From IMG/VR virus record IMGVR_UViG_3300043432_000237, positions 1 through 64,000 of that record: a DNA stretch of 64,000 nucleotides; one strand, given 5' to 3'. Under the pieces are notes generated by a model. It was not told where the DNA came from, did no database searches, and worked only from the letters and a program-made list of their open reading frames with translations. This document shows, in pieces, positions 34,754 to 54,194 of the stretch. Each line of letters begins with the position of its first letter. Within the stretch, counting starts at the first letter, position 1. Origin of the DNA: a virus. Lineage: Duplodnaviria > Caudoviricetes. The position numbers and the translations under genes were made by a program.

Positions 34754-35287
34754 ATGCAAAACCGCCTGGAGCTGTCGCCGCCAACCGTGACGCGCCCCTT
34801 CCGCGGGCCCGAGGACACCGTGCGCGAAATGGTGCGCGCGGTGCTGGGGCCGCGAGGCGAGCGCTCGATGCTGGTGCGCACGATGACCGAGCAGTGCGTG
34901 CACCTGCTGCAGGACAAGGACTACCAGAGCGAGCTAATCGCCATCCGCAACTTCGTCGCCACCAAGGGTCGTTACACCAACGACTCACTGGGCGTCGAGG
35001 TGGTGAAGGATCCGCAGCGCCAGGTGGAAGAGATCCTGGCCCGCGGTGTGACCGTCGGCGACTGCGACGACTGCGCCACGCTGATTGCCACCATGTGCCG
35101 CCAGGTGGGCCGCGAGGCCGAGTTCGTGACGGTGGGCTTCGGCTCCCCGAACACCTACTCGCACGTGTTCACGCGCGTGCGCGAGCCCAAGAGCAAACAG
35201 TGGATCGTGCTGGACACGGTGGCGGGTAGCGACGAAGCCAAGATGCTCCGTCGGGTGACGACCTGGCGAGCATGGAGGATTGACTGA
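34754..35287 (+). CDS. Transglutaminase-like (papain-fold) Cys protease
   Basis: GDCDD, YSHVF, WIVLD: Cys-His-Asp triad. Confidence 0.85.
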   Translation: MQNRLELSPPTVTRPFRGPEDTVREMVRAVLGPRGERSMLVRTMTEQCVHLLQDKDYQSELIAIRNFVATKGRYTNDSLGVEVVKDPQRQVEEILARGVTVGDCDDCATLIATMCRQVGREAEFVTVGFGSPNTYSHVFTRVREPKSKQWIVLDTVAGSDEAKMLRRVTTWRAWRID

Positions 35288-36051
35288 TGAGCTACGTTGC
35301 TGTCGGAGCCCTTACGCGCGTGTCCACCATCAACGCCCCCGCGGTACCGGTCTCGAACCCGTCGGCTGGGCAGGCCAGTAGTTTCAAGACGCGCATGACG
35401 ACGTACAGCGCACCGCCGCCGCCGCCCGCTGCCGCCCCGACCAACCAGGTCGAGTTCGGCGTGCCCATGCAGAAGACGGTGCAAGCCCCCCAGGCCACGG
35501 TGCAACAGGTAGTGCCAGTGCCCCAGGCCGTGTTGCAGCAGGCGGTTCCGGTCGCGGAAGCCTCGGTGCAAAAGGTGCCTAGTCTGCCCGTGCAGCCCAC
35601 GGTTACGCCGCCGCCCTCCAGCTGGTCGCCGCTCCAGGCGCCCGTCAAAGTCGAGGTGCCCGCGCCCGCGCCCAAGTTGTCCCCCATCAGCTTGGGCTTG
35701 CAGTACGCGCTCATTCCGCCGCCGGCCGCGCCGGCCGCGCCGGCCGCGCCGCGGGCTGCTCGTCGGCCAGCTCCGGCTCCGGCTGCGCGCCCGAGCGCAG
35801 GCAGCTGGCTGAGCCGCCCGGCCGCGCCGCTGGTGCCGCCGGCCGTGATGAGCTACCTGCCGGGCGCCAGCTGGTCAGCGGCGCCGGCTCCCGTCATCAC
35901 CAACACGCAACAGGTGACGCTGCCGCCGTCGGTGCGCGAGCCATCCGAGGCTCCTGCTGGCATGAGCAAGCGTGACTGGATGATCGCGGGGTTGATCGGA
36001 CTCGTCGCAGTGGGTGCGGCGGCCGTGTACGTGAAGCAGAAGAAAGGCTGA
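35287..36051 (+). CDS. Pro-rich tail-anchored membrane protein
   Basis: C-terminal WMIAGLIGLVAVGAAAVYV-KQKKG. Confidence 0.7.
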   Translation: MSYVAVGALTRVSTINAPAVPVSNPSAGQASSFKTRMTTYSAPPPPPAAAPTNQVEFGVPMQKTVQAPQATVQQVVPVPQAVLQQAVPVAEASVQKVPSLPVQPTVTPPPSSWSPLQAPVKVEVPAPAPKLSPISLGLQYALIPPPAAPAAPAAPRAARRPAPAPAARPSAGSWLSRPAAPLVPPAVMSYLPGASWSAAPAPVITNTQQVTLPPSVREPSEAPAGMSKRDWMIAGLIGLVAVGAAAVYVKQKKG

Positions 36052-36056
36052 GAGCA

Positions 36057-36491
36057 ATGTTGGGTCAGACAGGTTTCATGGTTCCGGGGCCGACGGCCTA
36101 CAGTCCGCCGCGCGGATTCCCCACGTGCGTGCCGGCCGATCGCAAGGCGCTCGCCGAGTACGCCTGCAAGCGCTACCAGACCGTCAAGGGACTGGGCACG
36201 GTGGCCGATCCGTACGCGGTGGCCCCCGCCTGCTACGTCGCGGCCATGCCGACCTGTGCGCCGACGCTGGTGCGCAGCTCGTTCCCGACGGCGCAGCTCA
36301 GCACGTCCGTCCTGAACGCCCTGCGGACGCCACCCGTCCTGAACACCGAGCCGCAGCCCATTCCGCCGCCCCCGGCGCCCGCTCCGTCGAGCAACAAGGC
36401 GCTGGTCGTCGGTGGCATTCTGGCCGCCGCGCTGGTCGTCGGCGGTGGCTACCTGGTCTACAAGTCCAGGAAGAAAACCGCAGCCGCCTGA
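36057..36491 (+). CDS. Tail-anchored membrane protein
   Basis: VKGLG motif; TM followed by KSRKK. Confidence 0.7.
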   Translation: MLGQTGFMVPGPTAYSPPRGFPTCVPADRKALAEYACKRYQTVKGLGTVADPYAVAPACYVAAMPTCAPTLVRSSFPTAQLSTSVLNALRTPPVLNTEPQPIPPPPAPAPSSNKALVVGGILAAALVVGGGYLVYKSRKKTAAA

Positions 36492-36495
36492 CTTT

Positions 36496-36524
36496 TTGGG
36501 TCACCCGACCCAGAGTGATAGGCT
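36496..36524 (+). promoter_or_regulatory. Sigma70-like promoter
   Basis: TTGGGT-N17-TAGGCT with TGn extension, preceded by a T-run. Confidence 0.5.
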
Positions 36525-36543
36525 GCACGAGACAGGAGACAGA

Positions 36544-37194
36544 ATGACGGCTTTCCCCAATCAGCCCATCGGTGGCCGGCTCCCGACGATGTGGGAGGTC
36601 GGCCCGAGCGACTTGCGCTACTCGTCGAGCACTGCGCCGGCCATGCAGACCCAGATCGATCGGGCGCACGGGCGTCATCTCGCCGGGACCGACGACCAGG
36701 TCCAGGACGAGGCCGCCGATCAAGGCATGGCCAAGAACGAGCTGGACTACTACGCGCAGATGGACGACGTCCAGGGCGCGGGCGTGTTCGATCCGCCGGG
36801 TAGTCATGGCAACATCCACCCCGACGCCGGGATCTTCACGGCGCGGTTCGACGTGCCGGGCTACCTCGCCCGCGAGCGCTTCAACCGCCCGAGCGAAGTC
36901 ATCGACGCCACCACGGGCCGCCCGACGATCTACGTCAACGGCGGCGCCGTGGCGATGGACGACAGCGCGCGCGTGGCGTTCATCGAGAACGATCAGTACC
37001 AGACGCCGCAGCCGGTACTGGACTCGCTGGCCGAGCACCGCATGCCGGGCCGCTCGACCGTCAACGTCCAGCAGAACCCGCAAGCCATCGGCGCCGTCTC
37101 GCAGCCGATGAGCGGGATCAAGCTGTTCGCGATCACGGCCGCTGTCGGCCTGGCCGCGGGCGCCGCCTACGCGGCGTTCCGCAAGAAGAAGTGA
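36544..37194 (+). CDS. Tail-anchored membrane protein
   Basis: GGAG SD; GAGVF and AGIF motifs; TM followed by RKKK. Confidence 0.7.
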   Translation: MTAFPNQPIGGRLPTMWEVGPSDLRYSSSTAPAMQTQIDRAHGRHLAGTDDQVQDEAADQGMAKNELDYYAQMDDVQGAGVFDPPGSHGNIHPDAGIFTARFDVPGYLARERFNRPSEVIDATTGRPTIYVNGGAVAMDDSARVAFIENDQYQTPQPVLDSLAEHRMPGRSTVNVQQNPQAIGAVSQPMSGIKLFAITAAVGLAAGAAYAAFRKKK

Positions 37195-37200
37195 GCGCCA

Positions 37201-37479
37201 ATGGACTGGGAGCAGGCAGCAGCTGGGACCGGGGACTATCACAGCTACCCGATCACGCCGGGCGTGGGCGACGTCTACAGTGACGCCGCGGTCAGCCAGG
37301 CGCGCGCCATTTGGGGTGCGCTCAGCGTCGCGGGCGCTGCTGCCAGTGCCTACCACGGCTACAAGCGCACGCAGAGCGTCGGCTGGGCGTTCGTGTGGGC
37401 GCTGTGCGGCTCGATCGCTCCGGTCGTCACCGTGCCCGTGGCCATCGCGCAGGGATTCGGCAAGCCGAAGCGAGGGTGA
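37201..37479 (+). CDS. Small two-TM membrane protein
   Basis: PGVGD; AASAYHGYKR..SVGWAFVW..IAQGFGKPK. Confidence 0.7.
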   Translation: MDWEQAAAGTGDYHSYPITPGVGDVYSDAAVSQARAIWGALSVAGAAASAYHGYKRTQSVGWAFVWALCGSIAPVVTVPVAIAQGFGKPKRG

Positions 37480-37485
37480 GCGGAG

Positions 37486-38937
37486 ATGGCGTTCTATCGG
37501 GTGCTGGTGGCAGAAAACGGTCGCATGCGCGAAGCAGGCGAGGTGCGCCTTGTGGAGCGTGCCAGCAACGCCGAGCTGGAGCGCGTGCTCGCCGACATAT
37601 CAGTCTTCGCGCCCCGGGGACAAGACCGAGTGAAGTGGACCGCAGAGGGCGCCACCATCACGGATGCGCACGGCGACCTGGTGGTACTGAAGAAGGTGGA
37701 GCGCATGAAGGCCAATGCAATGCGGATCCGTAAAGACTGTGCGCACTGTGGTCACCACATGTCGGCGCACCGGTACGACCCGGCAGTGCGCGGCGGTCCG
37801 CAACGCTGCTCTGTGCATGGGTGCCGCTGCACGGTGTTCGAGCGCGCAGCGAAGGGCGCGAGGAAAGTGAAGTTGGAGGCCAACGTGCGCAAGCAGCACT
37901 TTGCTGGGTACGACTTTTCCTCGGGTCCCGAAGGAACGGTAGTGCATCGTCCGCATGCGTCAGAGCTGCGCAGCGGCGATCGGGTCAAGTACAAGGACGT
38001 GAACCTGACCGACCAGGGCACAGTCGTATCGGCATCCGGTAAGTGGGCAGAGGTGCGTTGGGACCGATACCCGAACACTGCCACCAGAGAGTGGGCAGAC
38101 AATCTGAAAGTAGTGTCTCAGATGAACCGAAACTCACGTCACGCTCAGCTCGACTCGCGCACGCGCGAGATCGCCGAGACCGCTCCCATCCTGAACGACG
38201 GCGAGTTCGACTGGAAGGGCGAGGAGGGGCTGCTGCGCATCTGGATGGGCCAGCACGCTCCGACCTTCCTGTACTACTTCGGCAGCAGCGTCGAGGACGC
38301 TTTCGAGGAAGCGGTCGAATGGGCCGATGACCACGCTCCGGGCTTGCTGTTTATGCTGGGGCTCGAAGAGTACAAAGGAGCGGCCGAGGACGAGGGCATC
38401 GAGTGGAACGACGCCTGGCCGGACTTCGAGGACCCGGACTTCCAGCGAGTGGTCGATGCTGCCGAAGCAGACATGACTATCATCGGGCACACCACGCTCA
38501 AGAACGGCAATGCGGTACCAAGCTGGGAGTGGGGAGTCGACGAGATCCACGGCGAGGAGCGCGAGATCGTGACCGCGCGCGCCGCGCCGTACACGTACCG
38601 CATGACCTACGAGATCGTGACCCCGGAGAGCGCCGAAGATGGTGACGCCGCGGAGCGTGGGTGGGAAGTCGAGGAGCCCGCCGGACCCTTCTCACTCGAA
38701 GACCTCGTGCGGGAGGTCAACGATCACACCTGGGTCGAGTGGTCGAACAGCAACCCCACGGGCCAACGGGGCGAGTGGCTGATCAGCGAAGCGGAGCAGA
38801 ACTACTCCACCGGCGAAGACACCAGCTACCACCTGTTCATCGAACGGGTGGACGGGAAGCCGCTTTCCACGGCAGAGATCAAGGACATCAGCAAGGCGCT
38901 CGGTGTCTCGACGTTCGGCATGATGTTTCGGACCTGA
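37486..38937 (+). CDS. Modular polyprotein-like protein (Zn finger, SH3/KOW-like and acidic modules)
   Basis: CAHCGH..H..CSVHGCRC; LRSGDRVKY..GTVV..AEVRWD; modules separated by MKAN, LEAN, MNRN. Confidence 0.65.
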   Translation: MAFYRVLVAENGRMREAGEVRLVERASNAELERVLADISVFAPRGQDRVKWTAEGATITDAHGDLVVLKKVERMKANAMRIRKDCAHCGHHMSAHRYDPAVRGGPQRCSVHGCRCTVFERAAKGARKVKLEANVRKQHFAGYDFSSGPEGTVVHRPHASELRSGDRVKYKDVNLTDQGTVVSASGKWAEVRWDRYPNTATREWADNLKVVSQMNRNSRHAQLDSRTREIAETAPILNDGEFDWKGEEGLLRIWMGQHAPTFLYYFGSSVEDAFEEAVEWADDHAPGLLFMLGLEEYKGAAEDEGIEWNDAWPDFEDPDFQRVVDAAEADMTIIGHTTLKNGNAVPSWEWGVDEIHGEEREIVTARAAPYTYRMTYEIVTPESAEDGDAAERGWEVEEPAGPFSLEDLVREVNDHTWVEWSNSNPTGQRGEWLISEAEQNYSTGEDTSYHLFIERVDGKPLSTAEIKDISKALGVSTFGMMFRT

Positions 38938-38940
38938 GGA

Positions 38941-39546
38941 ATGACTATGCAGATGCCCGGCTACCCTCCTGGAGTTCCCAACCCGCTCGTGCGGCACGTG
39001 CACCCGTACCCCACGCGCTTCCATGGCACGATCTACACGCGCCCGGTGTTCGGGCTGCCGTACGTGCTCAGCCCGGGCAACGTCGCCATGCCGGGTGAGA
39101 TCGCCGGCCTGGGCGACTACAACGTGGGCCAGGGCGTGTTCCGCCCGGGCGGCTACGGCGGCGGCGTGTTCGACGGCAACCTCGCGGGACTCGGAGCCAC
39201 GGATCCGGTGGCGGCGGCCCAGACCAACCTCACCCAGCTGCAAGCCACCATTTCGGCGCTGGCGTCCCAGATGGCGTCGGTGACGCCCAACCAGGCCGCT
39301 CTGCTGGCAGAGCAGATCGCTGCGCTGCAGAAGCAGGAGACCGCGCTCAAGGCGGAGATCAAGAAGCTGCAGAGCGTGCCGAAGGTGCCCGTGTCGTTCT
39401 CGCCTCCAGTGGCCGCTCCGCCGGTGCAGACGGCGCCAGTCGAGTCGCTGATGGTGCCCAGCGACAACAAGTGGGTCATGTTCGTGGTGGGTGGCGGAAT
39501 CGCCATCGGTGCGCTGATCTACCTCAAGAAGAAGAAGAAGATCTGA
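38941..39546 (+). CDS. Tail-anchored membrane protein with short coiled coil
   Basis: IAGLGDY, LAGLGAT, GVF motifs; TM followed by KKKKK. Confidence 0.75.
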   Translation: MTMQMPGYPPGVPNPLVRHVHPYPTRFHGTIYTRPVFGLPYVLSPGNVAMPGEIAGLGDYNVGQGVFRPGGYGGGVFDGNLAGLGATDPVAAAQTNLTQLQATISALASQMASVTPNQAALLAEQIAALQKQETALKAEIKKLQSVPKVPVSFSPPVAAPPVQTAPVESLMVPSDNKWVMFVVGGGIAIGALIYLKKKKKI

Positions 39547-39980
39547 TGTACGTCTCGCTCGGAGCCGAGCTGCAGCACTTGCCACTGCCGGGACTCTCCA
39601 GCGGTGGCTCGTGCAGTATGGCGTCCAACGCCTACAGCGTGTTGACCGGTCGCGTGCAGGATGCCTTGGCCGAAGAAGGCGCCTCGCTGATCTCGGACGG
39701 CATCTGGAGCAAGCGCACCTGTGCGGGCTGGTGGCTGGTGATGGAAGAGGCGCCGACCGAGTCGGGCGTGCGCGAGCTGCTGGGCGACTACGTCCCGACG
39801 CAGTGCAAGTCCATCAGCGTGCCCGCCTGCCCGCGCCCGAGCGCGGCCGAGCTGGCGGCGGTCAAGGTCGCCAAGCCGGGCTGGCAGGCCGACATCGGCG
39901 GCAAGCCCTGGAACCTGTGGCTGGTGGGCGGCGTGGTCGCCGTGGCCGCTGCCTTGGCCTACACGCGCCGCAACAAGTAG
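39546..39980 (+). CDS. Tail-anchored protein with degenerate PG-binding-like domain
   Basis: MYVSLG start; VQDAL..DGIWSKRT; TM followed by RRNK. Confidence 0.65.
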   Translation: MYVSLGAELQHLPLPGLSSGGSCSMASNAYSVLTGRVQDALAEEGASLISDGIWSKRTCAGWWLVMEEAPTESGVRELLGDYVPTQCKSISVPACPRPSAAELAAVKVAKPGWQADIGGKPWNLWLVGGVVAVAAALAYTRRNK

Positions 39981-40029
39981 CGGTCGGGATTTTTGCAGCC
40001 GTTGGCTGCCCCGTGATGTACTCGGCCTC

Positions 40030-40671
40030 ATGAGTTTCGGAATTCTCGGAGGTCTGGGAGCAACGGGACTGGGGTCAGCTCCATACCCGGTGTGCTCCTA
40101 CTTCGGCTACGAGTGTCAGCACTGGAACGAGTACCCGCCGGACATTCAGAGCCAGATCATCGCCGCGGCGAAGCAGATCGACGCGAACCTGCAGGCGCAG
40201 TACGCGACCATCCGCAACGACGGCGGCTGCGACGCCAACGTCTCGGGTCGTCTGGCTGGCGCGCTCAAGGAGAAGCTGATCAAGTCCGGTGGTGATCCGG
40301 CCAAGATGAGCGCGGACGACTCCAGCTTCGGCCCCAAGGAGTGCGCCGAGTGGTGGAGGATCTACGACCGCGGCGTGACCATGGACGACGTGCTGGCGGT
40401 CAGCACGGCCGTGCTGGGCGGCGTGAAGGCGTCGGTCCAGACGATCTGCCAAAACAAGATCACGCTGCCGACCTGCGTGAAGCCGCCGCCGCCGCCGCCC
40501 CCCGGCGGTGGCAGCAGCAGCGGTGGCGGTGGTGGCGGAGTGATCCTGCCGCTGCCCATGCCGGCCAAGCCCAAGGTCAGCTACGCCAACCTGCTGGTGA
40601 CGGGCGGCGTGGTTGCCGCCGTCAGCGTGACGGGCTACTTCGTGGCGAAGAAGAAAGGCTGGCTCAAGTGA
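40030..40671 (+). CDS. Tail-anchored protein, paralogue of 39546..39980
   Basis: LGGLGATGLG leader; DSSFGPKECAEWW; TM followed by KKKG; promoter-like TTGCAG-N18-TGTACT upstream. Confidence 0.7.
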   Translation: MSFGILGGLGATGLGSAPYPVCSYFGYECQHWNEYPPDIQSQIIAAAKQIDANLQAQYATIRNDGGCDANVSGRLAGALKEKLIKSGGDPAKMSADDSSFGPKECAEWWRIYDRGVTMDDVLAVSTAVLGGVKASVQTICQNKITLPTCVKPPPPPPPGGGSSSGGGGGGVILPLPMPAKPKVSYANLLVTGGVVAAVSVTGYFVAKKKGWLK

Positions 40672-41039
40672 AGCGAGTCAACGTGGACGTGAGCAACTTT
40701 CGCGGCCCGCTCGATCCGGTGCCGTTCGCGGGGCTGGGTGCAGCGGCGCCCGGCTGGCCGGGTGGGCGCTCCTACTGGAACGTCTCGAACTTTCGCGCTC
40801 CCTACGACACCGGCCGGTTCAACGCGAGCCTGATGGGCCTGGGCGCGACGCAGGTGGCCGTGCCGCCGAGCGCGCTCTTGCCACCGCGCTTCCAGGAGTA
40901 CCTCGCCACGGGCGCCCCGATGCGCTCGGTCGTGGGCGCCGTGCAGCCCGCGCTCTGCCAGATCCCGCGCTGGGCCTGGGCGCTGATTGCCGCAGGCGCC
41001 GGCTACGCCGCCTATCGGGCGTTCAAGCCCAAGACCTGA
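40668..41039 (+). CDS. Tail-anchored protein with internal peptide repeat
   Basis: VSNFR.P.D...GLGA twice; C-terminal TM. Confidence 0.65.
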   Translation: MKRVNVDVSNFRGPLDPVPFAGLGAAAPGWPGGRSYWNVSNFRAPYDTGRFNASLMGLGATQVAVPPSALLPPRFQEYLATGAPMRSVVGAVQPALCQIPRWAWALIAAGAGYAAYRAFKPKT

Positions 41040-41049
41040 GAGAGCGACC

Positions 41050-41871
41050 ATGGGAAGCCTACAGGCACTTGCGTCCAAGTTCGTGATGGATCCGCCGCCG
41101 GATGACCCGGCAGGTCGGCTGCAGTTCCTTGCTCAGCATCTGCAGTACGTCGAGCAGATCATCGCGAAGCTGCCGCTGCCCGGCTACATCGCGGAGGATC
41201 AGGCGCTCCGCGACATGAACTCCGTGCGCGATCTGCTGGACAAGCTCAAGGACGTGACGGTGTCCACGGCTTTCCAGCTGCCCGGCGACGTGATGCGCAA
41301 CGTGATCCTGGGTCTCTGGCACGTCTGCAACTACGGCGTGAAGGTGCACTCTCCGGAGTGGCGCCAGCTGGCGCTGACCAACAAGGTCATGACGGCCGCC
41401 GAGCTGGAGCAGGACTACCTGGCGCGCCTGGGTGTGATGCAGGTGATCATCCGCATCCAGCAGTCGGGCGCGCTCAATCCGCTGTTCGCGAAGAAGGGTT
41501 CGATCACCTCGCTGGGTGAGCCCATCACGACCATCGCCATCGTCGCCATCGTCGCCACCGCCGTGGTGCTCGTCGCGCTGGGCTACGCGCTGATGCAGTG
41601 GACGGTGCTGTCCCTGAACAACAAGAAGATCCTGGACCGCCTGGACAAGATCTGTTTTGACTCGCAGGGGCGACCCATCGAGGCTGTCAAGGCCGACTGC
41701 GTGAAGGCCTACCAGGATGCCAACGACAAGCTCAACACGCAGGGCCCCAAGAACCCGATCGAAGACCTGGTGAAGTACGCGGCCATCGGTGGCGCCGTGT
41801 ACCTGGGCGTGCTGTTCCTGCCTGACATCGTGCGCACGCTGCGCGAGACCCGCGCTGCGTCCAAAGCCTGA
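41050..41871 (+). CDS. Two-TM membrane protein
   Basis: SLGEP followed by long hydrophobic ITTIAIVAIVATAVVLVALGYALM; second TM near the C-terminus. Confidence 0.7.
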   Translation: MGSLQALASKFVMDPPPDDPAGRLQFLAQHLQYVEQIIAKLPLPGYIAEDQALRDMNSVRDLLDKLKDVTVSTAFQLPGDVMRNVILGLWHVCNYGVKVHSPEWRQLALTNKVMTAAELEQDYLARLGVMQVIIRIQQSGALNPLFAKKGSITSLGEPITTIAIVAIVATAVVLVALGYALMQWTVLSLNNKKILDRLDKICFDSQGRPIEAVKADCVKAYQDANDKLNTQGPKNPIEDLVKYAAIGGAVYLGVLFLPDIVRTLRETRAASKA

Positions 41872-41884
41872 GGAGCATCCAGTC

Positions 41885-42223
41885 GTGATCTACTCACAGT
41901 GGAAGCCCGACACGGGGCGCTACGAGTACTACGAGTCGGCCGAGCGCTACGCGCGCGGCGACGATCTGCCGGTGCCGCGCCTGCGTGCCACCTCTCCAAT
42001 CGGTGTGCCCAGCACCGAGATCGGTCGCACGCCGACCCAGGCTCTGCGGCGCGTGGGCGAGGGCGAGCATGCCCGCGGCATGATCCTGCCGCTCAGTCGC
42101 GTGGGGCTGCTCGGCAGCACGACGCTCGACAGCATCCCGACCTGGGTGTGGGTGGGGCTGGGCGTGGCGGCGGGGTACGTCTTGTCGCGTCCCATCGCCA
42201 AGATGCTGAGGAGCGCGCTGTGA
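41885..42223 (+). CDS. Tail-anchored protein
   Basis: GAGGAG SD; YSQW.P..GRYEYYE; C-terminal TM. Confidence 0.65.
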   Translation: MIYSQWKPDTGRYEYYESAERYARGDDLPVPRLRATSPIGVPSTEIGRTPTQALRRVGEGEHARGMILPLSRVGLLGSTTLDSIPTWVWVGLGVAAGYVLSRPIAKMLRSAL

Positions 42224-42795
42224 GTCGACGCTACGTCGTCAACCGCGCCGAGTCGTTCGAGGCGGCCAAGCGCATCCGGGAGACGTTCCAGGACGCCCCC
42301 ATGCGCCGGCAGACCCCTGTGCCCTGGCAGTGGCCGAGCAGCATGCAAGAGGTGGGGATCTGCATTGGCGTCATGTACGCCTCCAACAAGTGGCAGTCCA
42401 ACCCGCGCACGCTGGTCGACTACAAGCACCTTGCCGAAGGTCCGCAGCGCCTCTACGTGCGCCGCGGTTTTCTGCGCGAGCACAAGACTCCCGAGCGCCA
42501 GCTGCGCGTCTGTGGCCCGATGGTGCCGCTCGACAAGCCGATGCCCACCGCGTTCGCGGAGCTGGCCAAGATCTTGGGCATCCAAGCCCAGCTCTATCAG
42601 GGCACCAACGAGCGCTTCGTGGTGCCCGAGGGCGACGAGCACATCTACCAGGTCAACATTCCCCGCGCGCACCTGGGGGCGGCCAAGCACCCCAAGACAG
42701 GTGAGACGTTCTTGCTGGTCTACAACGCCGACGGTGTTCACTGCATCATCTGCGGTGATGAGCTGGACGTCGAGAAGGACGGCATCGTGGGATGA
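42220..42795 (+). CDS. Hypothetical soluble protein
   Basis: GAGGAG SD; YVVN leader motif; DYKH. Confidence 0.65.
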   Translation: MSRRYVVNRAESFEAAKRIRETFQDAPMRRQTPVPWQWPSSMQEVGICIGVMYASNKWQSNPRTLVDYKHLAEGPQRLYVRRGFLREHKTPERQLRVCGPMVPLDKPMPTAFAELAKILGIQAQLYQGTNERFVVPEGDEHIYQVNIPRAHLGAAKHPKTGETFLLVYNADGVHCIICGDELDVEKDGIVG

Positions 42796-46468: not shown

Positions 46469-47221
46469 ATGGCAAAAGTAGTTTCCATTCGCGAGCGCGT
46501 TCACCAGCCCTTCTACGACACCCTCGTCCGCACGGCGGGTCTCACGGCCGGTGCGCTCACCGACAACACCTCCCTCTTCACCAGCAACGGTGCACGCACC
46601 GAGGCGACGACCAACCTGATCAACGGCGCCACGCTGCCCTCCGATCAGAGCCACGTCGTGCTCGCGCTCCGCGTCTTCACCTGGTACCGCAACCCGCGCC
46701 TGCGCGTGGCCGGTGCCGGTGCCGGCGAGATCGCGCAGAACGGTGACTACAACTTGCTGGCCCCCTGGCTCGCGGGCGGCGCGGCCGTCGGCCAGGCCCC
46801 CGGTCAGGTGCAGGACGTGTACCGCCTGCACTGGCAGACCGAGGAGCAGCTGCACTGGTCGTTCGGGACCGGGCTCAAGAACTCGATCGACAACATGCCG
46901 ACCTGGTACTTCCCGGCGGGCGGCGGCATCTCGGGCGACATGGGTGGGACGACCGACCTCATCCACTGGCAGAACTCGGGCTACGACGGGCACGCCGGCA
47001 TCCTGCGGCTCGCTCGCGCCGTCCTGATTCCGCCTCGCCAGAACATCCTGTGCCAGGCCAAGGTCTTCGCCCTCCCGAACGCGGGTCAGGCGGTCACCTT
47101 CGGCACGACCCAGGGTGCGCGCGACATGCTCAACCTCCGCGACAACCTGAACGCCATCGACGCGATCGGGAAGTGCGTGATGTTCTGCTTCGACGGCCTC
47201 TTCTCGCGCGACGTTCAGTGA
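46469..47221 (+). CDS. Putative major capsid protein (single jelly roll), 250 aa
   Basis: Strong SD, flanking hairpins, strongly biased codons; QPFYDT..SLF..TNL..GATLP..HVVLALRV...LIPPRQNI...VMFCFDG beta pattern; follows the core-protein gene. Confidence 0.6.
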   Translation: MAKVVSIRERVHQPFYDTLVRTAGLTAGALTDNTSLFTSNGARTEATTNLINGATLPSDQSHVVLALRVFTWYRNPRLRVAGAGAGEIAQNGDYNLLAPWLAGGAAVGQAPGQVQDVYRLHWQTEEQLHWSFGTGLKNSIDNMPTWYFPAGGGISGDMGGTTDLIHWQNSGYDGHAGILRLARAVLIPPRQNILCQAKVFALPNAGQAVTFGTTQGARDMLNLRDNLNAIDAIGKCVMFCFDGLFSRDVQ

Positions 47222-47230
47222 TCCCACACG

Positions 47231-47360: not shown

Positions 47361-47414
47361 AGACCCTTTGATCCTCAACTCCCAGCCCTCGCCTGAGCGA
47401 GCACGGGGTTTCCC

Positions 47415-48365
47415 ATGAACGTCAATCAGCAGCTCTTGAACCAGCTCAACGCCGCGGCGCAGAACGCCCGCGTCGCATTCGAGCGCGCCGCCCGCGCCGA
47501 ACAGCAGGGCCAGGCCTTGTACGCCCAGGCATCGCAGCTCGCCGGTGAGCTGGAGGCCATGAAGCGCGTCGTCGCCAACCTCGAAGTCTCGCGCTCCGGC
47601 GCTCCGGCTTCCATCCAGCGGGTGGAGAACATCCCGGGCCGACGCATCCCGTTCGATGCACTGGTCGACATCGCCATCGGTGACTCGGTGCAGTCGGTGC
47701 AGCAGGGCTCGATCACCATCTCGCAGGAAGGCCCGTTCGTGGGCGTCAGCCGCGTGATGGCGCTGCTCAGCACGTTCGAGTTCCAGTACCGCGATCCGGT
47801 CTCGGGCGCCGCCAGCGCCTTCCAGGGTCGCTCCTACGGCCGCTACCGTCCCGCGCACAGCGCCTGGGACCTGAACGACAGCATGGTCTCGCCGCAGGTC
47901 TCGCAGGCCGTGGGCTTCCCCGGCACCGGCGCGCCGCACGTGACCAGCCCCGGCACGGCGTCCAGCTTCCGCTCGATGGAGGGCGACTTCCGCATCATCG
48001 TCGAGAACGCCGGCTCCAGCTTCCCGCGCTCGAACCAGGAGGTCCCCTCGGCGTTCTGGTCGCGCGCCATCAACGAGCCCTTCGAGCTGGGCGCGCTCGA
48101 CGTCTTCGAGCGTGGCGAGGTCATCGTCTTCAAGGTGCTGCCGCTGCACCCGAACAACCCGAGCTACGGCAACCTGAGCGCGTTCGGCGCGCCCAACGCC
48201 AGCTTCCCGTTCGTGACGGCCGGCTTCGATGCCGTCGAGGGCGTCAACGACCAGAACGACGCGAACGCCTCCACGACCGATCCCGTGACGCGCCTGGCGA
48301 ACGCCATCGTCACGATCGGCTACCACGGCTACCGCATCATCCAGCAGCCGGGTCTGCCGGGCTGA
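47415..48365 (+). CDS. Putative second capsid protein (N-terminal coiled coil plus jelly roll)
   Basis: GSITISQEGPFVGV...DVFERGEVIVFKV...VTIGYHGYRI. Confidence 0.55.
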   Translation: MNVNQQLLNQLNAAAQNARVAFERAARAEQQGQALYAQASQLAGELEAMKRVVANLEVSRSGAPASIQRVENIPGRRIPFDALVDIAIGDSVQSVQQGSITISQEGPFVGVSRVMALLSTFEFQYRDPVSGAASAFQGRSYGRYRPAHSAWDLNDSMVSPQVSQAVGFPGTGAPHVTSPGTASSFRSMEGDFRIIVENAGSSFPRSNQEVPSAFWSRAINEPFELGALDVFERGEVIVFKVLPLHPNNPSYGNLSAFGAPNASFPFVTAGFDAVEGVNDQNDANASTTDPVTRLANAIVTIGYHGYRIIQQPGLPG

Positions 48366-48382
48366 GGCGTGCCGACCGAGAG

Positions 48383-48415
48383 GGTCACCGGAGGGATTGC
48401 GAGCCTCCGGTGGCC
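48383..48415 (+). terminator. Hairpin between capsid-like genes
   Basis: GGTCACCGGAGG-N9-CCTCCGGTGGCC followed by ATTTC. Confidence 0.55.
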
Positions 48416-48436
48416 ATTTCGAGGTAGGCTCACACC

Positions 48437-49312
48437 ATGACGGACTACCGCAACCAGCTGTCGTCAGCCTTCCAGCTCCCGAGCATGGGTCATGTGCCGC
48501 GCGACGCCGGAGGCCCGCTCGGTCCCGGTGGTGGAGCGCACCCTGCGCCGAGCGCTCAGGCTGCGCCGCACCCGGAGCCCGCGCCGGACTTCGTGCGCAC
48601 GGTCGCAGCCGGCGGCGCGCTGCCCGAGCTGTTGCTGCACCCGACCTTCCTGCCCTTCGAGAACTTGTTCCGGCGGCTGCCGGAGGAGGCGATGTTCAAC
48701 GCCTCGCCCGACCGCCCCTACAAGTTCGAGCTGGGCGCGTTCGAGGTCCCCAAGAACCAGGCGCTCCTGCTCGCCGACTTTCGGTTCGCGCTGCATCGCT
48801 TGAGCGGCGCCGCCGCCTCCGACACGGTGCCGATGGAGCCCGAGCGGCTGAGCATGCTGCTGGCGTTCGATCTCACGATCGCCAACAACCGCAAGGCGCA
48901 GCTGCGCATGGAGATCGATCCGGTCACCATCCAGGCACAGAAGGAAGCCTTCCAGAGCCAGGTGTCGGGCGGCACGATCTTCCCCGGCGCGCGCACGGGC
49001 GGCTCTGCGCTCAGCCCGGCCAACAACCTGCAGTACGCGCTCTCGCGCTTCGCGCAGTCGGTGGTGCCGGGTGGCCTGGGCCTCTCGGGCTTGCCGAACC
49101 GCCCGCGCCGCCTGGGCGCCGAAGACTTGCCCTTCACGATGGTCGCCGTCGAGACCCAGCGCGTCCAAGCGAGCTGCGTGGTCTTCCGGCCCATCCCCAT
49201 CCCGATCGCGTTCTTCCAGTGCGACATTTCGGGAGTGCTGATGAGCATGAACACGATGCGCGCGCTCTTCGATGCAGTGAAACCTGCCGTCGAGCGTGGA
49301 GGCATCCGATGA
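48437..49312 (+). CDS. Putative third capsid-like jelly-roll protein
   Basis: FELGAFEVPKNQALLL...FTMVAVETQRVQASC...FFQCDISGVL. Confidence 0.55.
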   Translation: MTDYRNQLSSAFQLPSMGHVPRDAGGPLGPGGGAHPAPSAQAAPHPEPAPDFVRTVAAGGALPELLLHPTFLPFENLFRRLPEEAMFNASPDRPYKFELGAFEVPKNQALLLADFRFALHRLSGAAASDTVPMEPERLSMLLAFDLTIANNRKAQLRMEIDPVTIQAQKEAFQSQVSGGTIFPGARTGGSALSPANNLQYALSRFAQSVVPGGLGLSGLPNRPRRLGAEDLPFTMVAVETQRVQASCVVFRPIPIPIAFFQCDISGVLMSMNTMRALFDAVKPAVERGGIR

Positions 49313-49430: not shown

Positions 49431-50180
49431 ATGGCCCTGGGAGCATATTTCCGAGCAGTCGAGAGTCAGCCGATCCCGGAGCCGCAGCTGGACGGGCTGG
49501 GCTCGCAGGATCAGTTCGCGGTCGAGGCGTTGCAGGAGCTGCTGGAGGCACAGGGTATCCGGCCTGCGGCGGCGATGGCGCCCTGGGGCATCCAGGAGGG
49601 CAGCGTCGACTGGCAAGCCGAGCACCCGGACCACAGCCTGCTGCTGTATCCGATCAGCGATGGCCTGCTGACGCAGGTCGAGAAGTCGACCTTCGGCATG
49701 CCCGTGCCGGCCGTCGCGATCTTGACCACCACGCCCGTCGTGCTGGCCAAGGCGCGCGAGGCCTACGACGATACGCCGTACCGCTTTCACGCCGTCGAGG
49801 GCGTCTACCGCCTGGACGACAAGAAGCCGGTGCCGACGATCTACTTCCTCTACTGGGGTCACTACCGCGAGCCCAACGACAGCGGAGGTGGCCGCTCGGC
49901 GCTGCAGAGCGTCGCGTCCATGCTCGGCGGCTCGCTCGTCTTCCCGTTGCAGCTGCCGCGCACCGGCCAGGAGCGCCAGCACCCGTCGGTGACCTTCCAG
50001 CTCGCCCTGGCGGCGCAGCTGAGCGGCCAGCCGGCGGCAGCGCTGCCGCCGACGGCGGTGCCCAGCGCGCTGGCACCCAGTGCCGCCCCGGCGCCTAGCG
50101 CGGCCTGGTGGCTGCTCCCGGTGGTCGGCGGGCTGGCCGCCTATGGCGGCTACCGCTGGTGGAAAGGACGCAAGAGCTGA
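49431..50180 (+). CDS. Tail-anchored membrane protein
   Basis: MALGAY, LDGLGS; TM followed by RWWKGRKS. Confidence 0.7.
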   Translation: MALGAYFRAVESQPIPEPQLDGLGSQDQFAVEALQELLEAQGIRPAAAMAPWGIQEGSVDWQAEHPDHSLLLYPISDGLLTQVEKSTFGMPVPAVAILTTTPVVLAKAREAYDDTPYRFHAVEGVYRLDDKKPVPTIYFLYWGHYREPNDSGGGRSALQSVASMLGGSLVFPLQLPRTGQERQHPSVTFQLALAAQLSGQPAAALPPTAVPSALAPSAAPAPSAAWWLLPVVGGLAAYGGYRWWKGRKS

Positions 50181-50329
50181 TGGCCAAGATCGTTGCTATC
50201 TCGGGCACCGAGCCCCAACCCAACCAGGCGGCACTCATGAGCGCAGCAGCACTCGGATGGACGGTCGTGCTCGGCGTGACCTTCTACATCTTCTGGAGCA
50301 CGGCCAAGCCGGCCCGCAAGCGGAGGTAG
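50180..50329 (+). CDS. Small tail-anchored peptide
   Basis: TM followed by KPARKRR. Confidence 0.6.
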   Translation: MAKIVAISGTEPQPNQAALMSAAALGWTVVLGVTFYIFWSTAKPARKRR

Positions 50330-50332
50330 ATC

Positions 50333-50548
50333 ATGATCTCGCTCACCGATCTGGGAACCGTGGCCGACGTCGCCCAACAGGTCGAGGCCAACCCCTTCAT
50401 GCTGGCGGGCCGTCTGATCGGCCTGAGCGGTGACGAGCAGAAGGCGGGCGTGCCGATGTGGGCGTGGGTCTCGCTGGCGTTCGTGGGCGGAGCAGTCGCG
50501 ACGCTGAAGTACGGTCCGCAGATCCGCGCCAAGCTCAAGCAGCTCTGA
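50333..50548 (+). CDS. Small membrane protein
   Basis: GGAGG SD; TDLGT; C-terminal TM. Confidence 0.65.
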   Translation: MISLTDLGTVADVAQQVEANPFMLAGRLIGLSGDEQKAGVPMWAWVSLAFVGGAVATLKYGPQIRAKLKQL

Positions 50549-50600
50549 TTTTTGGAGGTCGAGCAGACCTTTGATAGCGTCGGACCTGGAGCCACTCAAC

Positions 50601-50942
50601 ATGTACCAGCCAACCAGCAAAGCAGACGGGATCTTCTCACACGGTGTGGGTCCGAGCTACGCCTACGGCGCGCAGCGAACGGCGCACGCAGACGGCTCGC
50701 TCGGCGAGTACGCCTACGGCGCGCGCACCTCTTCGTTCGCGGACGGATCACTGGGTGGCTGCAGCAGCTGCTCGGGCATGGGCGCCCTGACGCCCGAGCT
50801 GGCGACCAAGGTGTTGTCCGCGATGCAGCCGCAGTTGCCCGCTGCACCGCCGATGTCACCGGTGGTGCGTGGTCTGCTCATCGGCGGCGGCGTGCTGGTC
50901 GTGGCCGCCATCGGCTACGCCGTGATGAAGAAGAAGGGATGA
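50601..50942 (+). CDS. Tail-anchored protein with duplicated YAYGA..ADGSLG motif
   Basis: GGAG SD; upstream TTGGAG-N17-TAGCGT; TM followed by MKKKG. Confidence 0.7.
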   Translation: MYQPTSKADGIFSHGVGPSYAYGAQRTAHADGSLGEYAYGARTSSFADGSLGGCSSCSGMGALTPELATKVLSAMQPQLPAAPPMSPVVRGLLIGGGVLVVAAIGYAVMKKKG

Positions 50943-50946
50943 GGTC

Positions 50947-51216
50947 ATGGCGCTAACGAATAGGTGCCTGAGCGGTCTCGGCGCGGCGTTCATCGAGATG
51001 CCCCGCGCCCGCCTCGGGTTCCGCGCGGGCGGCGTGTTCTCGCCGCGCGCTTCGGCCGCCGAGTACAAGCCGAGCCTGGGTGAAGTGCAGGCCGTGACGG
51101 AAAGCGCCAGCTCGATCGAACAGCGCCAGGAGAAGCAGAAGCTGCTGCTGGTGACGAGCCTGGCCAGCCTGGCCGTCGGCGCCGCCATCACCTACGCTGT
51201 GATGAAGAAGAGCTGA
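50947..51216 (+). CDS. Small tail-anchored protein
   Basis: LSGLGA, GGVF, SLGE; TM followed by MKKS. Confidence 0.7.
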   Translation: MALTNRCLSGLGAAFIEMPRARLGFRAGGVFSPRASAAEYKPSLGEVQAVTESASSIEQRQEKQKLLLVTSLASLAVGAAITYAVMKKS

Positions 51217-51221
51217 CCGCC

Positions 51222-51515
51222 ATGCAAGACGGTATCTTTCTCTCGTCTCCCACGCGGGGAACGCTGCCCACGTCGCGCAACGCGCTCATTGTGGCTCAGC
51301 GGCCGACTTCGCTGGGCCGAGTCAACTCGGCCGGCGTGGCCCTCACGTTCGGTGTGTTCGGTTTGGTGCTGGCCGGAGGAGCCTACGGGGGCTACCAGCT
51401 GGGTAGGCGTTACAAGCATCCCCTGGTGGGCGCCGCCGCGGGTGCTGCCGTCGCGTACGTCCCCGCCTGGATGGCGGGTGCTGTCACTGCGCTTCTCACG
51501 ATGGGCAGCGTGTGA
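51222..51515 (+). CDS. Small multi-TM protein
   Basis: DGIF, TSLG, glycine-zipper-like TMs. Confidence 0.65.
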   Translation: MQDGIFLSSPTRGTLPTSRNALIVAQRPTSLGRVNSAGVALTFGVFGLVLAGGAYGGYQLGRRYKHPLVGAAAGAAVAYVPAWMAGAVTALLTMGSV

Positions 51516-51521
51516 GGATCC

Positions 51522-52964
51522 ATGCAAGACGCTGGAATCGGGCTCCGCCGACTCTCCCCTCGCGACACCCTGGCCGGCGATCCGGGCGGGAGCATAACCG
51601 GCGTCAGCACCTACGAGCTGCCCGACGGAGCGATCTGTTGGTGTGTCGAAACGCAGTGCGACTACCAGTTGCACAAGAGTTCCACGACAGCGGCTGACGG
51701 AGTCTACGTCGTGGCGCCGGCCGCTGGCCCTGGTCGCTGGTTTCAACTGGCAGTGGGGAACAACGTGCTGGTGCAGCCGAGCTGGTACGTCAACGCGGTC
51801 ACTGGTTCAGACGCCAACGACGGCACGACGGCGCTGACCCCGCTGCTCACGTTGGCGGAGCTGTACCGTCGAACGGTGGGCAAAGTGTTCGCCGTGAACG
51901 CTACGGTGTACCTGAGTGGTGACTTCAGCGCAGAGGCACTGGTGCTGGACGCCTGCGTCGCGCCGGGGGTGCAGGTCACGGTGCGCGGTGAAGTCCGACA
52001 GGACGGCAGTTACTCTGTCGGGGCGTATACCGCGTACAACGGTGCAACGAGCACTCCGGCGGTAGTGAGCGACGGCGGAGCGACCGCATACGCTGGCGAC
52101 GTGGGCAAGATCGCGCGGATGACTTCGGGAGCGGCAATCAACTGCTCTGCTCCGATCATGAAGGCGACGGCCGCTGGAGCGTTCCGACCTGGACACTTCC
52201 AGTCGGTGGACTACGTGACGATGGCTCCGGGCGTCGGCGACACCTACGTGGTCGAGGAACTGCTCACCAAGGTAGGGACCATCCAAACGCGCATGAGCGG
52301 CAGCGGTGGAGACTACTCGGTCTATGCCCCGCGCCTGCTCGTGCGGGACCTGGATGTGTACCCGCCGGCAAACACGCCTCAAGACCTGTCGTTCAACGCA
52401 GGCGACGCGAGCGGAGCGGGCACCTTGCTCTACCGCGTGCGTCTGTCCGGTGGCGCCCTGGGCAATGTGTGGCTGACCGGTAGCGGGGTCCAGCTGCTCT
52501 GCACGTACTCCAAAGCCGATTGCTATCTCACCGTCGCCGGTTCAGCGCTCTACTGCTGGGGCTTCGTGGCGATGGGCGGGCTGCAGGTCAACAACAGCAT
52601 CTTGAATGTCCCCTTTGACATGATGCTGGTACAGGGTCACGCGGTTTACTTCTACGGAGGCCAAGTCGCCGCAGTCGCAGGCATCGGGTTCCTGGACATC
52701 GGAGCCGGCGACGGTGCCGGGCTGATCGTCAGCACCGGAGCCAACGTCGAGGCATCCGCCGGGACGTCGTACCTCTGGAGCAACGGAAACCTGTGCGCGT
52801 ACGGTATCCGAGTAGGAGCAGGATCGATGGTCACCTACGGAGTGAAGCCGACGGCCACCGGCGTCACGAACGACACGCTAGTCGGCGGGACCGCCAAGGC
52901 CTATGCCGCGATCCCCTACTTCGAGGCCGCCAACGGCGCGGGCATCGTGGTCTACCAGGGATAG
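51522..52964 (+). CDS. Spike/receptor-binding protein: shared adaptor plus beta-helix-like domain
   Basis: Adaptor shared with 32768..33382; WYVNAVTGSDANDG...PLLTL motif typical of the start of pectin-lyase-like folds. Confidence 0.7.
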   Translation: MQDAGIGLRRLSPRDTLAGDPGGSITGVSTYELPDGAICWCVETQCDYQLHKSSTTAADGVYVVAPAAGPGRWFQLAVGNNVLVQPSWYVNAVTGSDANDGTTALTPLLTLAELYRRTVGKVFAVNATVYLSGDFSAEALVLDACVAPGVQVTVRGEVRQDGSYSVGAYTAYNGATSTPAVVSDGGATAYAGDVGKIARMTSGAAINCSAPIMKATAAGAFRPGHFQSVDYVTMAPGVGDTYVVEELLTKVGTIQTRMSGSGGDYSVYAPRLLVRDLDVYPPANTPQDLSFNAGDASGAGTLLYRVRLSGGALGNVWLTGSGVQLLCTYSKADCYLTVAGSALYCWGFVAMGGLQVNNSILNVPFDMMLVQGHAVYFYGGQVAAVAGIGFLDIGAGDGAGLIVSTGANVEASAGTSYLWSNGNLCAYGIRVGAGSMVTYGVKPTATGVTNDTLVGGTAKAYAAIPYFEAANGAGIVVYQG

Positions 52965-53019
52965 AGCAGCCACCGAACCCTTGGCAGCGCCAGGCGCCCA
53001 GTGATAAGTCACCAGGCAG

Positions 53020-53610
53020 ATGGCCAATGAGCTGTTCGAGGCGCTGAGCAAGGTTGCGTTCTCCCTGCAGGGCTTGCCGCGCGGCTCACTGGGTGGCCCG
53101 GTCTGGGAAGAGCTGAAGCCCTGGCTGGAGAAGTTGATGTCACACGCGGCGCCCAAGTGGTTGCCGCGCCTGAGCTTCGCGTTCCCCTGCCAGGTGGCTG
53201 TGCATCGACAGGGCGTGCCCATTGGGCCCTGTCCGCACCGGGCCATCGCGAGCTGCGACGTCTGCGGTGGCGCCTGCTGCCTGCACCACGCGCGCATCGA
53301 CCAGCTGGGCGACGCCATCTGCTACCCGTGCGTGGCGCGCGCTGTGGCGGCACACCGTGGCGGCGGCGCACCTCCGGCGCCCCCTCCGCGCAGCAAGGCA
53401 GAAGAGCTGCGCTGGGCCCGCAAGCTGCTCAAGGTCAAGCCGGAGGACGACTGGGAGACCATCCGCGCGGCGCACCGGCGCGAGAGCGGAAAAACCCACC
53501 CGGACCGGCAGCGCACCGACAAGGCCAAGGCCAAGGCCACCGAGCGCTTCAAGCTGGTGCAGCAGGCGTTCGAGGTGCTCAAGCTCGAACACGGCCCCAA
53601 GACGGGCTGA
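53020..53610 (+). CDS. B-box-like Zn finger plus C-terminal J-domain
   Basis: CDVCGGACCLHH..CYPC; ARKLL.V..IRAAHR..THPDR..FKLVQQAFEVL. Confidence 0.85.
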   Translation: MANELFEALSKVAFSLQGLPRGSLGGPVWEELKPWLEKLMSHAAPKWLPRLSFAFPCQVAVHRQGVPIGPCPHRAIASCDVCGGACCLHHARIDQLGDAICYPCVARAVAAHRGGGAPPAPPPRSKAEELRWARKLLKVKPEDDWETIRAAHRRESGKTHPDRQRTDKAKAKATERFKLVQQAFEVLKLEHGPKTG

Positions 53611-53658
53611 CGTTCAGGTTTTTGGTCGATGGCCGAGCCGGGTGGTAGCCTGACCTCC

Positions 53659-53868
53659 ATGAGCTACGGATCGCTGGGTGAGAGCTACGCCATCACGCTG
53701 CCGGTGGTGGGGCACACCTCCATGGAGCTGCCGGTCCAGAAAATCACGCACGACGCCATGAGCTACGCGCTGGAGGATCTCAAGCTCCGCGTCAAGGCGA
53801 AGCTGCCGGTCGTGATCGGTGTCGGTCTGCTCGGCGTGGCCGGCTATCTCGTGATCAAGAGGATGTGA
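53659..53868 (+). CDS. Small tail-anchored protein (leaderless)
   Basis: TTGGTC-N18-TAGCCT-N7-ATG; MSYGSLGE; TM followed by KR. Confidence 0.65.
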   Translation: MSYGSLGESYAITLPVVGHTSMELPVQKITHDAMSYALEDLKLRVKAKLPVVIGVGLLGVAGYLVIKRM

Positions 53869-54194
53869 TGAGCTACGTGAACACCAGCAGGCCGTACTAC
53901 GAGCAGTTCCAGATCGACACGCCCCTCGAAGAGGGCACGATGGGCTGGTCGCGCGCTCCCTGGCCCGGGTGGGGTCAGAACGCCAACCTGATCGGTCCCA
54001 AGCAGATCGCGGTCGGCTCCAGCCCTGACGGACTCGGTGCGTACTACCGGAACCAGGAGAACCGCGCGATCGGCCAGGACGCTGGCTCGGGCGGTGGTGC
54101 GCTGGTGGTCGTGATGTTCGCGTGCGCGGTGGTCGGCGGGCTGGTGCTGCTCGGCAGCATGCGCGAGATCGGCAAGCAGCCGCGTCGTCGGTGA
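53868..54194 (+). CDS. Small tail-anchored protein
   Basis: MSY start, DGLGAY, AIGQD; TM followed by KQPRRR. Confidence 0.65.
   Translation: MSYVNTSRPYYEQFQIDTPLEEGTMGWSRAPWPGWGQNANLIGPKQIAVGSSPDGLGAYYRNQENRAIGQDAGSGGGALVVVMFACAVVGGLVLLGSMREIGKQPRRR

Follow-up and report, generated by a model that had tools for sequence, protein, structure and literature searches.

A short glycine motif shared by tail-anchored and core proteins of an uncultured virus family, a possible docking tag

What, if anything, unites the many small and otherwise unrelated late proteins encoded in one 64,000-nucleotide (nt) stretch of viral DNA, and what might such a shared feature be for? The stretch, here called the window, is the first 64 kb of IMG/VR virus record IMGVR_UViG_3300043432_000237 (G000), a 125,036-bp record with direct terminal repeats and 66% G+C. 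A preliminary description of the window, made from its letters and open reading frames (ORFs), had noted a recurrent [GSAP]-[LMVI]-G motif in about 20 structural proteins and read it as a virion-wide code for maturation cleavage or modification. Here we show that a narrower form of this motif is enriched in the late gene block of G000 and of its relatives. We consider it highly probable that the motif is a functional tag with a common reader, and we give a probability of roughly 40% to docking or incorporation as its primary role, perhaps with trimming afterwards.

The motif is enriched in the late block

Gene calling with a codon-usage model gave 185 genes in G000, of which 28 form the block under study and 157 lie elsewhere.

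35287-54194 (+): late block of 28 co-oriented genes, from the gene calls

We compared G000 with three full-length related records of 125-179 kb (G001-G003), whose late blocks are syntenic with that of G000 at a protein identity of 35-80%. To these we added 24 further loci, collected around homologues of a 250-residue protein (46469-47221) and divided by its identity into tiers of 72-82%, 53-60% and 33-34%. Expected motif counts were obtained from whole-protein shuffles; window shuffles of 12 or 20 residues preserve local composition. The counts for the G000 block were as follows.

[GSAP][LMVI]G: 69 observed, about 45 expected (1.5x, z 3.8; whole-protein shuffle)
[GS][LM]G: 27 observed, 9.6 expected (2.8x, z 5.8; whole-protein shuffle)
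[GS][LM]G: 27 observed, about 11 expected (z 4.8-4.9; 12- and 20-residue window shuffles)
GLG: 13 observed, 4.6 expected (whole-protein shuffle)

All peptides listed in the preliminary description were found in the ORFs to which it had assigned them, including VAGLGA in 4398-5510 (-), and with its start codons the strict form [GS]-[LM]-G occurs 29 times across 18 of the 28 block ORFs. The motif as it was then written holds only in its core. [GS]-[LM]-G is enriched, but alanine or proline at position 1 and isoleucine at position 2 are at background. The control tripeptides LGG, GGL, GAG, GIG, ALG, PLG, GLA and GLS were not enriched in the four genomes; in the further loci, LGG, GGL, GAG and ALG were mostly near 1x, with no significant excess anywhere. 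GVG showed an excess in G002 alone of the four genomes (z about 3) and a weak one, 1.5-1.8x, in the further loci. Because related tripeptides lack the excess, the earlier definition was too broad, and the true core is Φ-x-[GS]-[LM]-G, with Φ a hydrophobic residue.

The excess is confined to the late block. When block and remainder were compared using shuffles that keep composition, a check that had been proposed with the original observation, the other 157 G000 genes carried the motif at 0.8-1.0x expectation. GLG and [GS][LM]G likewise stood at about 1x in the remainder of the G001-G003 genomes, which bears out the suggestion that the motif is rare in replication genes. Since the motif was defined after G000 had been viewed, its replication in other genomes is decisive. 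In the G001-G003 blocks, GLG reached 3.9-4.7x (z 7-10) and the extended form [GS][LM]G[EDASTN][YFW] 21-29x. In the further loci, GLG was enriched 4.5x in the 72-82% tier (z 16), 2.8x in the 53-60% tier (z 14) and 2.5x in the 33-34% tier (z 7). The excess was thus seen in all three relatives and in the 24 further loci. Each genome spells GLG with 7-19 distinct 9-mers, a codon diversity which shows the peptide, and not a DNA word, to be under selection.

Codon choice at the motif leucine has a bias of its own: in the four genomes CTC is preferred and CTG avoided, most clearly in G003, where CTG encodes 0 of 20 motif copies versus 34% of leucines genome-wide. This may reflect avoidance of CCWGG-type sites in GGC-CTG-G.

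Flanks and placement of the motif

Outside the central part of the block, tag instances lie in two runs of small genes, one on either side of it.

35287..44209 (+): first of the two runs of small late genes, most of whose products end in a membrane helix and a basic tail
nt 35689, 36189, 39106, 39187, 39555, 40051, 40066, 40731, 40836, 41509 and 42822 (+): tag instances in the first run
49431..54194 (+): second of the two runs, again of small late genes, with most products tail-anchored
nt 49494, 50697, 50748, 50775, 50974, 51073, 51309, 53086, 53671 and 54030 (+): tag instances in the second run

Seventeen of the 28 G000 block genes encode tail-anchored proteins, in which a terminal hydrophobic helix is followed by a few Lys/Arg residues. 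Across the four genomes this architecture is found in 74 of 126 block genes (59%) versus 48 of 717 elsewhere (7%), and inside the blocks the tag is associated with it (odds ratio 2.9, p 0.006).

Flank statistics were drawn from 432 de-duplicated sites, with the core protein described below excluded, and from a narrower set of 405 de-duplicated contexts. Among the 432 sites, M, I, L or V occupies position -2 in 39% versus a background of 21% (p 3e-17); positions -1, -3 and -4 show no hydrophobic excess, and there is a mild excess of aromatics from -4 to -7 and at +2 and +3. The 405-context set favours S, N, A and G at -1 and E, D, A, S and T at +1. The hydrophobic excess at -2 lends statistical support, as a sequence likeness, to the match with adenovirus protease sites that had been pointed out; examples in G000 that fit the adenain consensus are IAGLG, LAGLG, LMGLG, LDGLG and LSGLG.

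Motif density is 8-9 per 1,000 residues in the first 30 residues of a protein and 1-3 per 1,000 past residue 100, and 110 distinct N-termini carry the tag inside 28 residues. Of the placement first proposed, at the end of a short N-terminal leader or ahead of the membrane anchor, the N-terminal bias therefore stands, but a motif before the anchor is only occasional (for example 41509-41517). Some copies fall within membrane helices, for example at nt 45658 and at nt 42155, an additional match in a hydrophobic, membrane-like segment of the first run. Unrelated proteins commonly begin M-[STA]-[YF]-x(0-12)-G-L-G, and M[STA][YF] starts are found in 19 of 126 block genes versus 17 of 716 elsewhere. 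Other starts follow M-x(0-3)-[GS][LM]G-A-Y-F, as in MSLGAYF and MNNGLGEYF. The starts taken in the preliminary description at 40030 (MSF..GLG) and 53659 (MSYGSLGE) suit this family pattern better than those of the gene caller at 40090 and 53629.

Individual sites turn over. Between orthologues a site was retained in 24 of 101 comparisons (24%), with overall density maintained; FAGLG, SSPDGLGAY (54030) and DGSLGEY / GLGGCSSC (50697-50756) are kept in most of the genomes compared. Such turnover at steady density is typical of multivalent binding motifs.

A sub-variant joins the motif to a cysteine cluster, as in GLGGCSSC, GLGGCGC, GLGCGC and GLGACLPC (window 50748-50783; G003 88401; G001 56605; G002 28157). 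These clusters may be metal-binding or acylation sites. Reading GLGGC as a lipobox was dropped, there being no preceding signal peptide.

A core protein with a tandem tag array

In one protein at the centre of the block the tags form an array.

44506..46287 (+): basic core protein of 593 residues, with hydrophobic helices and a disordered C-terminal tail

About 40% of the first half of this protein is Arg+Lys, arranged in repeats of roughly 35 residues, and the hydrophobic helices come next. The tail (nt 45841-46113) holds SLGA, PVGEYF, GMGEYF, GLGNY, AAAGVG and AAGLGDF, with the array itself spelled PVGEYFDQ-GMGEYFEGATA-GLGNYG. The relatives have arrays of their own in the same place: four copies of GLGEYFAQN in G001 and G002, three of GLGEYFEGTA in G003, and units of the form G[LM]GEYVNQP[ML]S / G[LM]GT.YAAAG in the distant tier. 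In each case the units are 9-11 residues long and in tandem. An alignment of 25 orthologous tails (28-64% identity) shows G-x-G-E-Y, G-x-G-x-Y and AE.AAG to be invariant, so that two tag copies are present in 25 of 25 tails. AE.AAG stands ahead of G-x-G there, and some copies come after a predicted helix, as AEAAAG-V-G; most tags lack the Ala-Ala.

AlphaFold2 predicted disorder for the tail (predicted template-modelling score 0.21), with a single short helix. Invariant residues in a segment predicted to be disordered point to recognition by a partner and not to a folded structure. The extreme C-terminus of the core protein has a pattern of its own, GG.G[VI]FG in close relatives and GG.GVLSG or longer variants further out.

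Candidate partners of the tag

Two neighbours of the tagged genes are candidates for interacting with the tag.

46469..47221 (+): capsid-protein candidate of 250 residues, the most conserved protein of the block and tag-free
34754..35287 (+): transglutaminase-fold protein of 177 residues with a Cys104-His137-Asp154 triad (Pfam Transglut_core PF01841, E 3e-8)

The capsid candidate is 72-80% identical in the relatives versus 35-60% for other late proteins. Its 686 homologues from public protein data are without exception hypothetical proteins and form 93 clusters at 50% identity; they lie on contigs of up to 138 kb, one of them in a Gemmatimonadales bin. A search of the phage collection gave no match. 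Its AlphaFold2 model is beta-rich and of low confidence (mean predicted local distance difference test 58). With this model, Foldseek returned nothing at E < 1e-3 and a weak list made up mostly of jelly-roll capsid proteins, and in an exhaustive structure alignment the best matches (Z 4.9 at most) were generic jelly-roll or beta-sandwich chains. The capsid candidate is a possible receptor for the tag.

The transglutaminase-fold protein is present in all eight related genomes searched, at 44-62% identity, and C104, H137 and D154 are invariant across the eight sequences. It is still 44-47% identical in genomes whose 250-residue protein is about 33% identical. In each of the six genomes for which gene positions were compared, its gene precedes the late block and is oriented the same way. 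Judged from these sequences, it is the sole family-wide candidate for an enzyme that reads the tag. Among 50,697 phage records its only matches were gp34 of Salisaeta icosahedral phage 1 (SSIP-1) and a pseudomurein endoisopeptidase of an archaeal virus, and its sequence had no match among solved structures. Because that second match is a pseudomurein endoisopeptidase, the protein may be a lytic or cell-wall enzyme. It could be a maturation protease and equally a virion-borne cell-wall enzyme.

Known maturation proteases gave no match to profile hidden Markov models at E <= 1: neither adenain C5 (PF00770), Ulp1 C48 (PF02902) and poxvirus I7 C57 (PF03290) in four or five genomes, nor T4 gp21 S77 (PF03420) and HK97-type S78 (PF04586) in five. 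The papain-like protein at 25506-26285, which had also been put forward as the cleaving enzyme, has a homologue in G003 alone of the three relatives and is thus not a family-wide enzyme.

Docking, cleavage or neither

The reading we favour is that the tag is a shared short linear motif in disordered parts of particle proteins. In about 18 tail-anchored membrane proteins this part is the free N-terminal arm, and in the core protein, which would itself be membrane-tethered and DNA-condensing, it is the C-terminal tail. A single viral factor would read the tag during particle assembly, so that otherwise unrelated proteins are recruited and tethered to an assembly hub. This hub could plausibly be the capsid candidate, encoded just downstream of the core protein, because it is both tag-free and the most conserved late protein; the arrays of the core tail would then give multivalent attachment. 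Subsequent trimming of the tag by the transglutaminase-fold Cys-His-Asp enzyme is possible, much as the T4 capsid-targeting sequence is trimmed. Given the arrays, leaders of one to three residues and the low positional retention, a docking tag fits at least as well as a cleavage site, and since many proteins start directly with the tag, they leave no room for residues that a protease would require N-terminal to the cut. Several points weigh against docking as the primary role. The argument from conservation for the capsid candidate as the hub is indirect, and the proposed binding partners of the tag are candidates drawn from sequence. The strict Gly-x-Gly with a hydrophobic residue at -2 is the pattern that papain-like proteases such as adenain read, a Cys-His-Asp enzyme is co-encoded in every genome examined (8/8), and the N-terminal bias matches what would be expected of a system that removes leaders.

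These last points belong to a maturation-cleavage code, which we regard as quite possible while short of even odds. It would have Φ-x-G-[LM]↓G or G-[LM]-G↓x (arrow, cut) cleaved by a viral cysteine protease, most likely the 34754-35287 protein, which would remove the leaders and, once the particle is assembled, cut up the core tail, in the manner of adenain acting on pVI, pVII, pX and L1 52/55k. Hydrophobic excess at -2 only, together with small residues at -1, is the formal adenain type-1 consensus; the motif is about five times denser within the first 30 residues, and the leaders vary in length; and the enzyme with the invariant triad sits upstream of the late block. In SSIP-1, the one relative in culture, the homologue of that enzyme (gp34) carries a structural-protein annotation. 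There is precedent both for a transglutaminase fold cutting at a small-residue motif, in LapG (the core tails have an invariant AAG just before G-x-G), and for a scaffold-like protein cut many times, in L1 52/55k. What tells against cleavage, besides the missing C5, C48, C57, S77 and S78 proteases, is that leaders of one to three residues lack P4 and P3, that sites are retained so poorly, and that the nine-residue array unit is conserved in full with an invariant Glu-Tyr after the main tail copy, which suggests that recognition also extends C-terminal of the motif. The match of the enzyme to a cell-wall endoisopeptidase also means that a role in lysis or entry may apply.

The remaining explanations fare less well. 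That G-[LM]-G has no common reader, and is instead a convergent structural element of Gly-rich linkers (a helix cap, or a hinge with a hydrophobic anchor) favoured in any disordered arm near a membrane, would suit the copies that follow a predicted helix or lie inside membrane helices, and the high turnover of sites. We find this distinctly unlikely, as permuted and similar tripeptides are unenriched even in local-composition shuffles, the flanks are specific, copies are invariant across 25 diverged tails, and disordered proteins elsewhere in these genomes show no excess. We consider very unlikely a site of covalent modification, either isopeptide cross-linking by the transglutaminase-fold enzyme or glycosylation: the Transglut_core fold, glycosyltransferase genes just downstream of the block and an enrichment of Gln at -4, +1, +4 and +5 in several tiers (QAAAG-x-G and EYFAQN units recur) speak for it, but many instances have no Gln, Lys is unenriched, no known sequon is matched, and small bacterial Transglut_core proteins are mostly thought to be proteases (Pfam description). 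Chance, a composition artefact of a high-G+C genome or a repeated DNA word is hardly credible. A 66% G+C genome is rich in Gly, Ala and Leu and the motif was defined post hoc, but z values of 5-16 recur in independent genomes while the rest of each stays at about 1x; window shuffles and the permuted controls rule out a composition artefact, and codon diversity rules out a DNA word.

Relation to known systems

Tags that serve targeting or cleavage across a whole particle are familiar from T4, jumbo phages, adenovirus, poxviruses and encapsulins. One close likeness is to adenovirus, whose protease adenain cuts (M/I/L)XGX-G or (M/I/L)XGG-X sites in pIIIa, pVI, pVII, pVIII, pX, pTP and L1 52/55k. 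The pVI site IVGL↓G contains the motif, and L1 52/55k is a scaffold-like protein cut at many sites (PMC4246237). In both systems one Gly-containing motif recurs across unrelated core and inner-shell proteins, including a DNA-condensing one, with a hydrophobic residue four positions ahead of the second Gly, and the major capsid protein (here the capsid candidate) is not among the carriers. The systems differ in that no clan-CE protease was detected here and the host is bacterial, in the tags that form arrays or stand at extreme N-termini, and in the putative nature of any cleavage.

T4 offers a model for a peptide that does both jobs. Its capsid-targeting sequence of 10 residues brings proteins into the head before being processed itself (PMC9026906), so docking and trimming can coexist in one peptide. 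As in our genomes, a short N-terminal tag is common to unrelated particle proteins, in T4 inside the particle and removed by gp21. The T4 motif, however, ends in L/I-x-E and is read by an S77 serine protease of a kind not found here, and the T4 proteins are soluble and packed in an HK97-fold head whereas those described here are membrane-anchored.

Encapsulin targeting peptides (consensus DGSLGIGSLKG), in which hydrophobics flanking a glycine hinge bind a pocket of the shell, dock diverse cargo to its inner face (PMC7925596). The strings DGSLGEY and SGSLG[VI]LG in our set recall them, as a resemblance only: encapsulin peptides are C-terminal, single-copy and matched to an HK97-fold shell, whereas the tags here are N-terminal or internal and often present in several copies, and the candidate for the shell resembles a beta-sandwich.

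For the enzyme, the comparison is with LapG, a transglutaminase-fold protease that cuts at a di-alanine (PMC10990149). The 34754 protein shares the fold class and the Cys-His-Asp triad of LapG/BTLCP; LapG is periplasmic and calcium-dependent and regulates a single adhesin, and the match of the 34754 protein is limited to the Pfam core. SSIP-1 is the only cultured phage with a detectable homologue, gp34 (annotated structural), and by tblastn the similarity is weak (24% identity over 135 residues, E 2e-3). As in G000, the gp34 gene precedes small tail-anchored proteins; unlike G000, SSIP-1 has a genome of 44 kb, and its gp34 has a membrane anchor of its own. No significant excess of the motif was seen in the SSIP-1 late genes (GLG 4 versus 4.2 expected). 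Phages of the SSIP-1 kind are tailless, with jelly-roll capsid proteins around an internal membrane; for the present family the comparable observations are the 59% of block genes that code for tail-anchored proteins and a beta-rich, low-confidence model of the capsid candidate.

Literature searches for GLGEYF, GMGEYF, GLGEYV and GLGAYF found no paper, and broader searches on this virus group returned nothing relevant. We know of no such tag on the membrane proteome of a bacterial virus, nor of one read by a transglutaminase-fold enzyme. Peptide tags that act particle-wide are known in kind; as far as we have found, a membrane-proteome version in a bacterial virus with a transglutaminase-fold candidate reader is undescribed. 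The full proposal, in which Φ-x-G-[LM]-G is a peptide code that sorts tail-anchored and protamine-like core proteins and a transglutaminase-fold enzyme matures them, in a widespread family of uncultured bacterial viruses with genomes of 125-180 kb, we put forward as doubtful in its entirety. Its interest lies in a virus family that is large and wholly unannotated. If a sorting or maturation code exists, it would account for the joining of dozens of small, unrelated membrane proteins in a single particle, would make virion proteins simple to predict in metagenomes, and could supply a portable tag for loading cargo into such particles. It would also bear on the age of adenovirus-style maturation, which may predate eukaryotic viruses or have arisen by convergence. 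If the full proposal is right, an adenovirus-like maturation logic would operate on a different protease fold in a prokaryotic virus.

Other genes of the block and its surroundings

The late proteins are otherwise hard to name. Scanned against Pfam and PHROG, the block proteins gave one Pfam match, to a J-domain protein, and none to PHROG; no Pfam family was found for any first-run protein tested, and an NCBIfam search of eight late proteins gave no match. Further features in and around the block are listed below.

47415..49312 (+): two conserved late proteins of 316 and 291 residues, with no Pfam or PHROG family
53020-53610 (+): J-domain protein in the second run (DnaJ domain PF00226, E 4e-10)
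4398..5510 (-): outlying 370-residue protein with VAGLGA at residue 322
55536-56876 and 57070-58149: glycosyltransferases, downstream of the block

The 316-residue protein is tag-free; in the 291-residue protein, SMG stands at residue 16 and GLG at residue 213, and orthologues keep neither. In G003 the homologue of the outlying 4398-5510 protein (33% identity) has a basic C-terminal tail and is encoded within the late block, so that in G000 one member of the late module stands apart from the rest. A GDSL-lipase/lectin-like protein is encoded upstream of the block. Elsewhere G000 encodes bacterial-type replication proteins, namely DnaB (E 3e-85), an IstB/DnaC-like loader, a DNA polymerase III beta clamp and an SNF2 helicase, which mark the host as bacterial.

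The J-domain protein has an HPD motif and a Cys-rich segment and is conserved in four of four full genomes. Handling of dozens of tail-anchored proteins may require such a viral co-chaperone among the particle genes. Its presence had prompted the idea that the tag is a DnaK-binding peptide, which we set aside on account of the preference of DnaK, a chaperone that disfavours acidic residues adjoining the hydrophobic core.

Two loci of G000 outside the window deserve mention. At 70798-74107 (-), a MoxR-type AAA+ ATPase lies beside a protein with DUF2201 metallopeptidase-like and VWA parts; both have homologues in three of three full-length relatives, and the PHROGs label 'HNH endonuclease' for the DUF2201/VWA protein looks wrong. 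At 112995-114260 (-), a protein matches PHROG 1645, 'virion structural protein' (E 5e-95, 35-39% identity), a family of cyanomyoviruses and Puniceispirillum phage HMO-2011 and the sole strong link to cultured tailed phages that we noticed.

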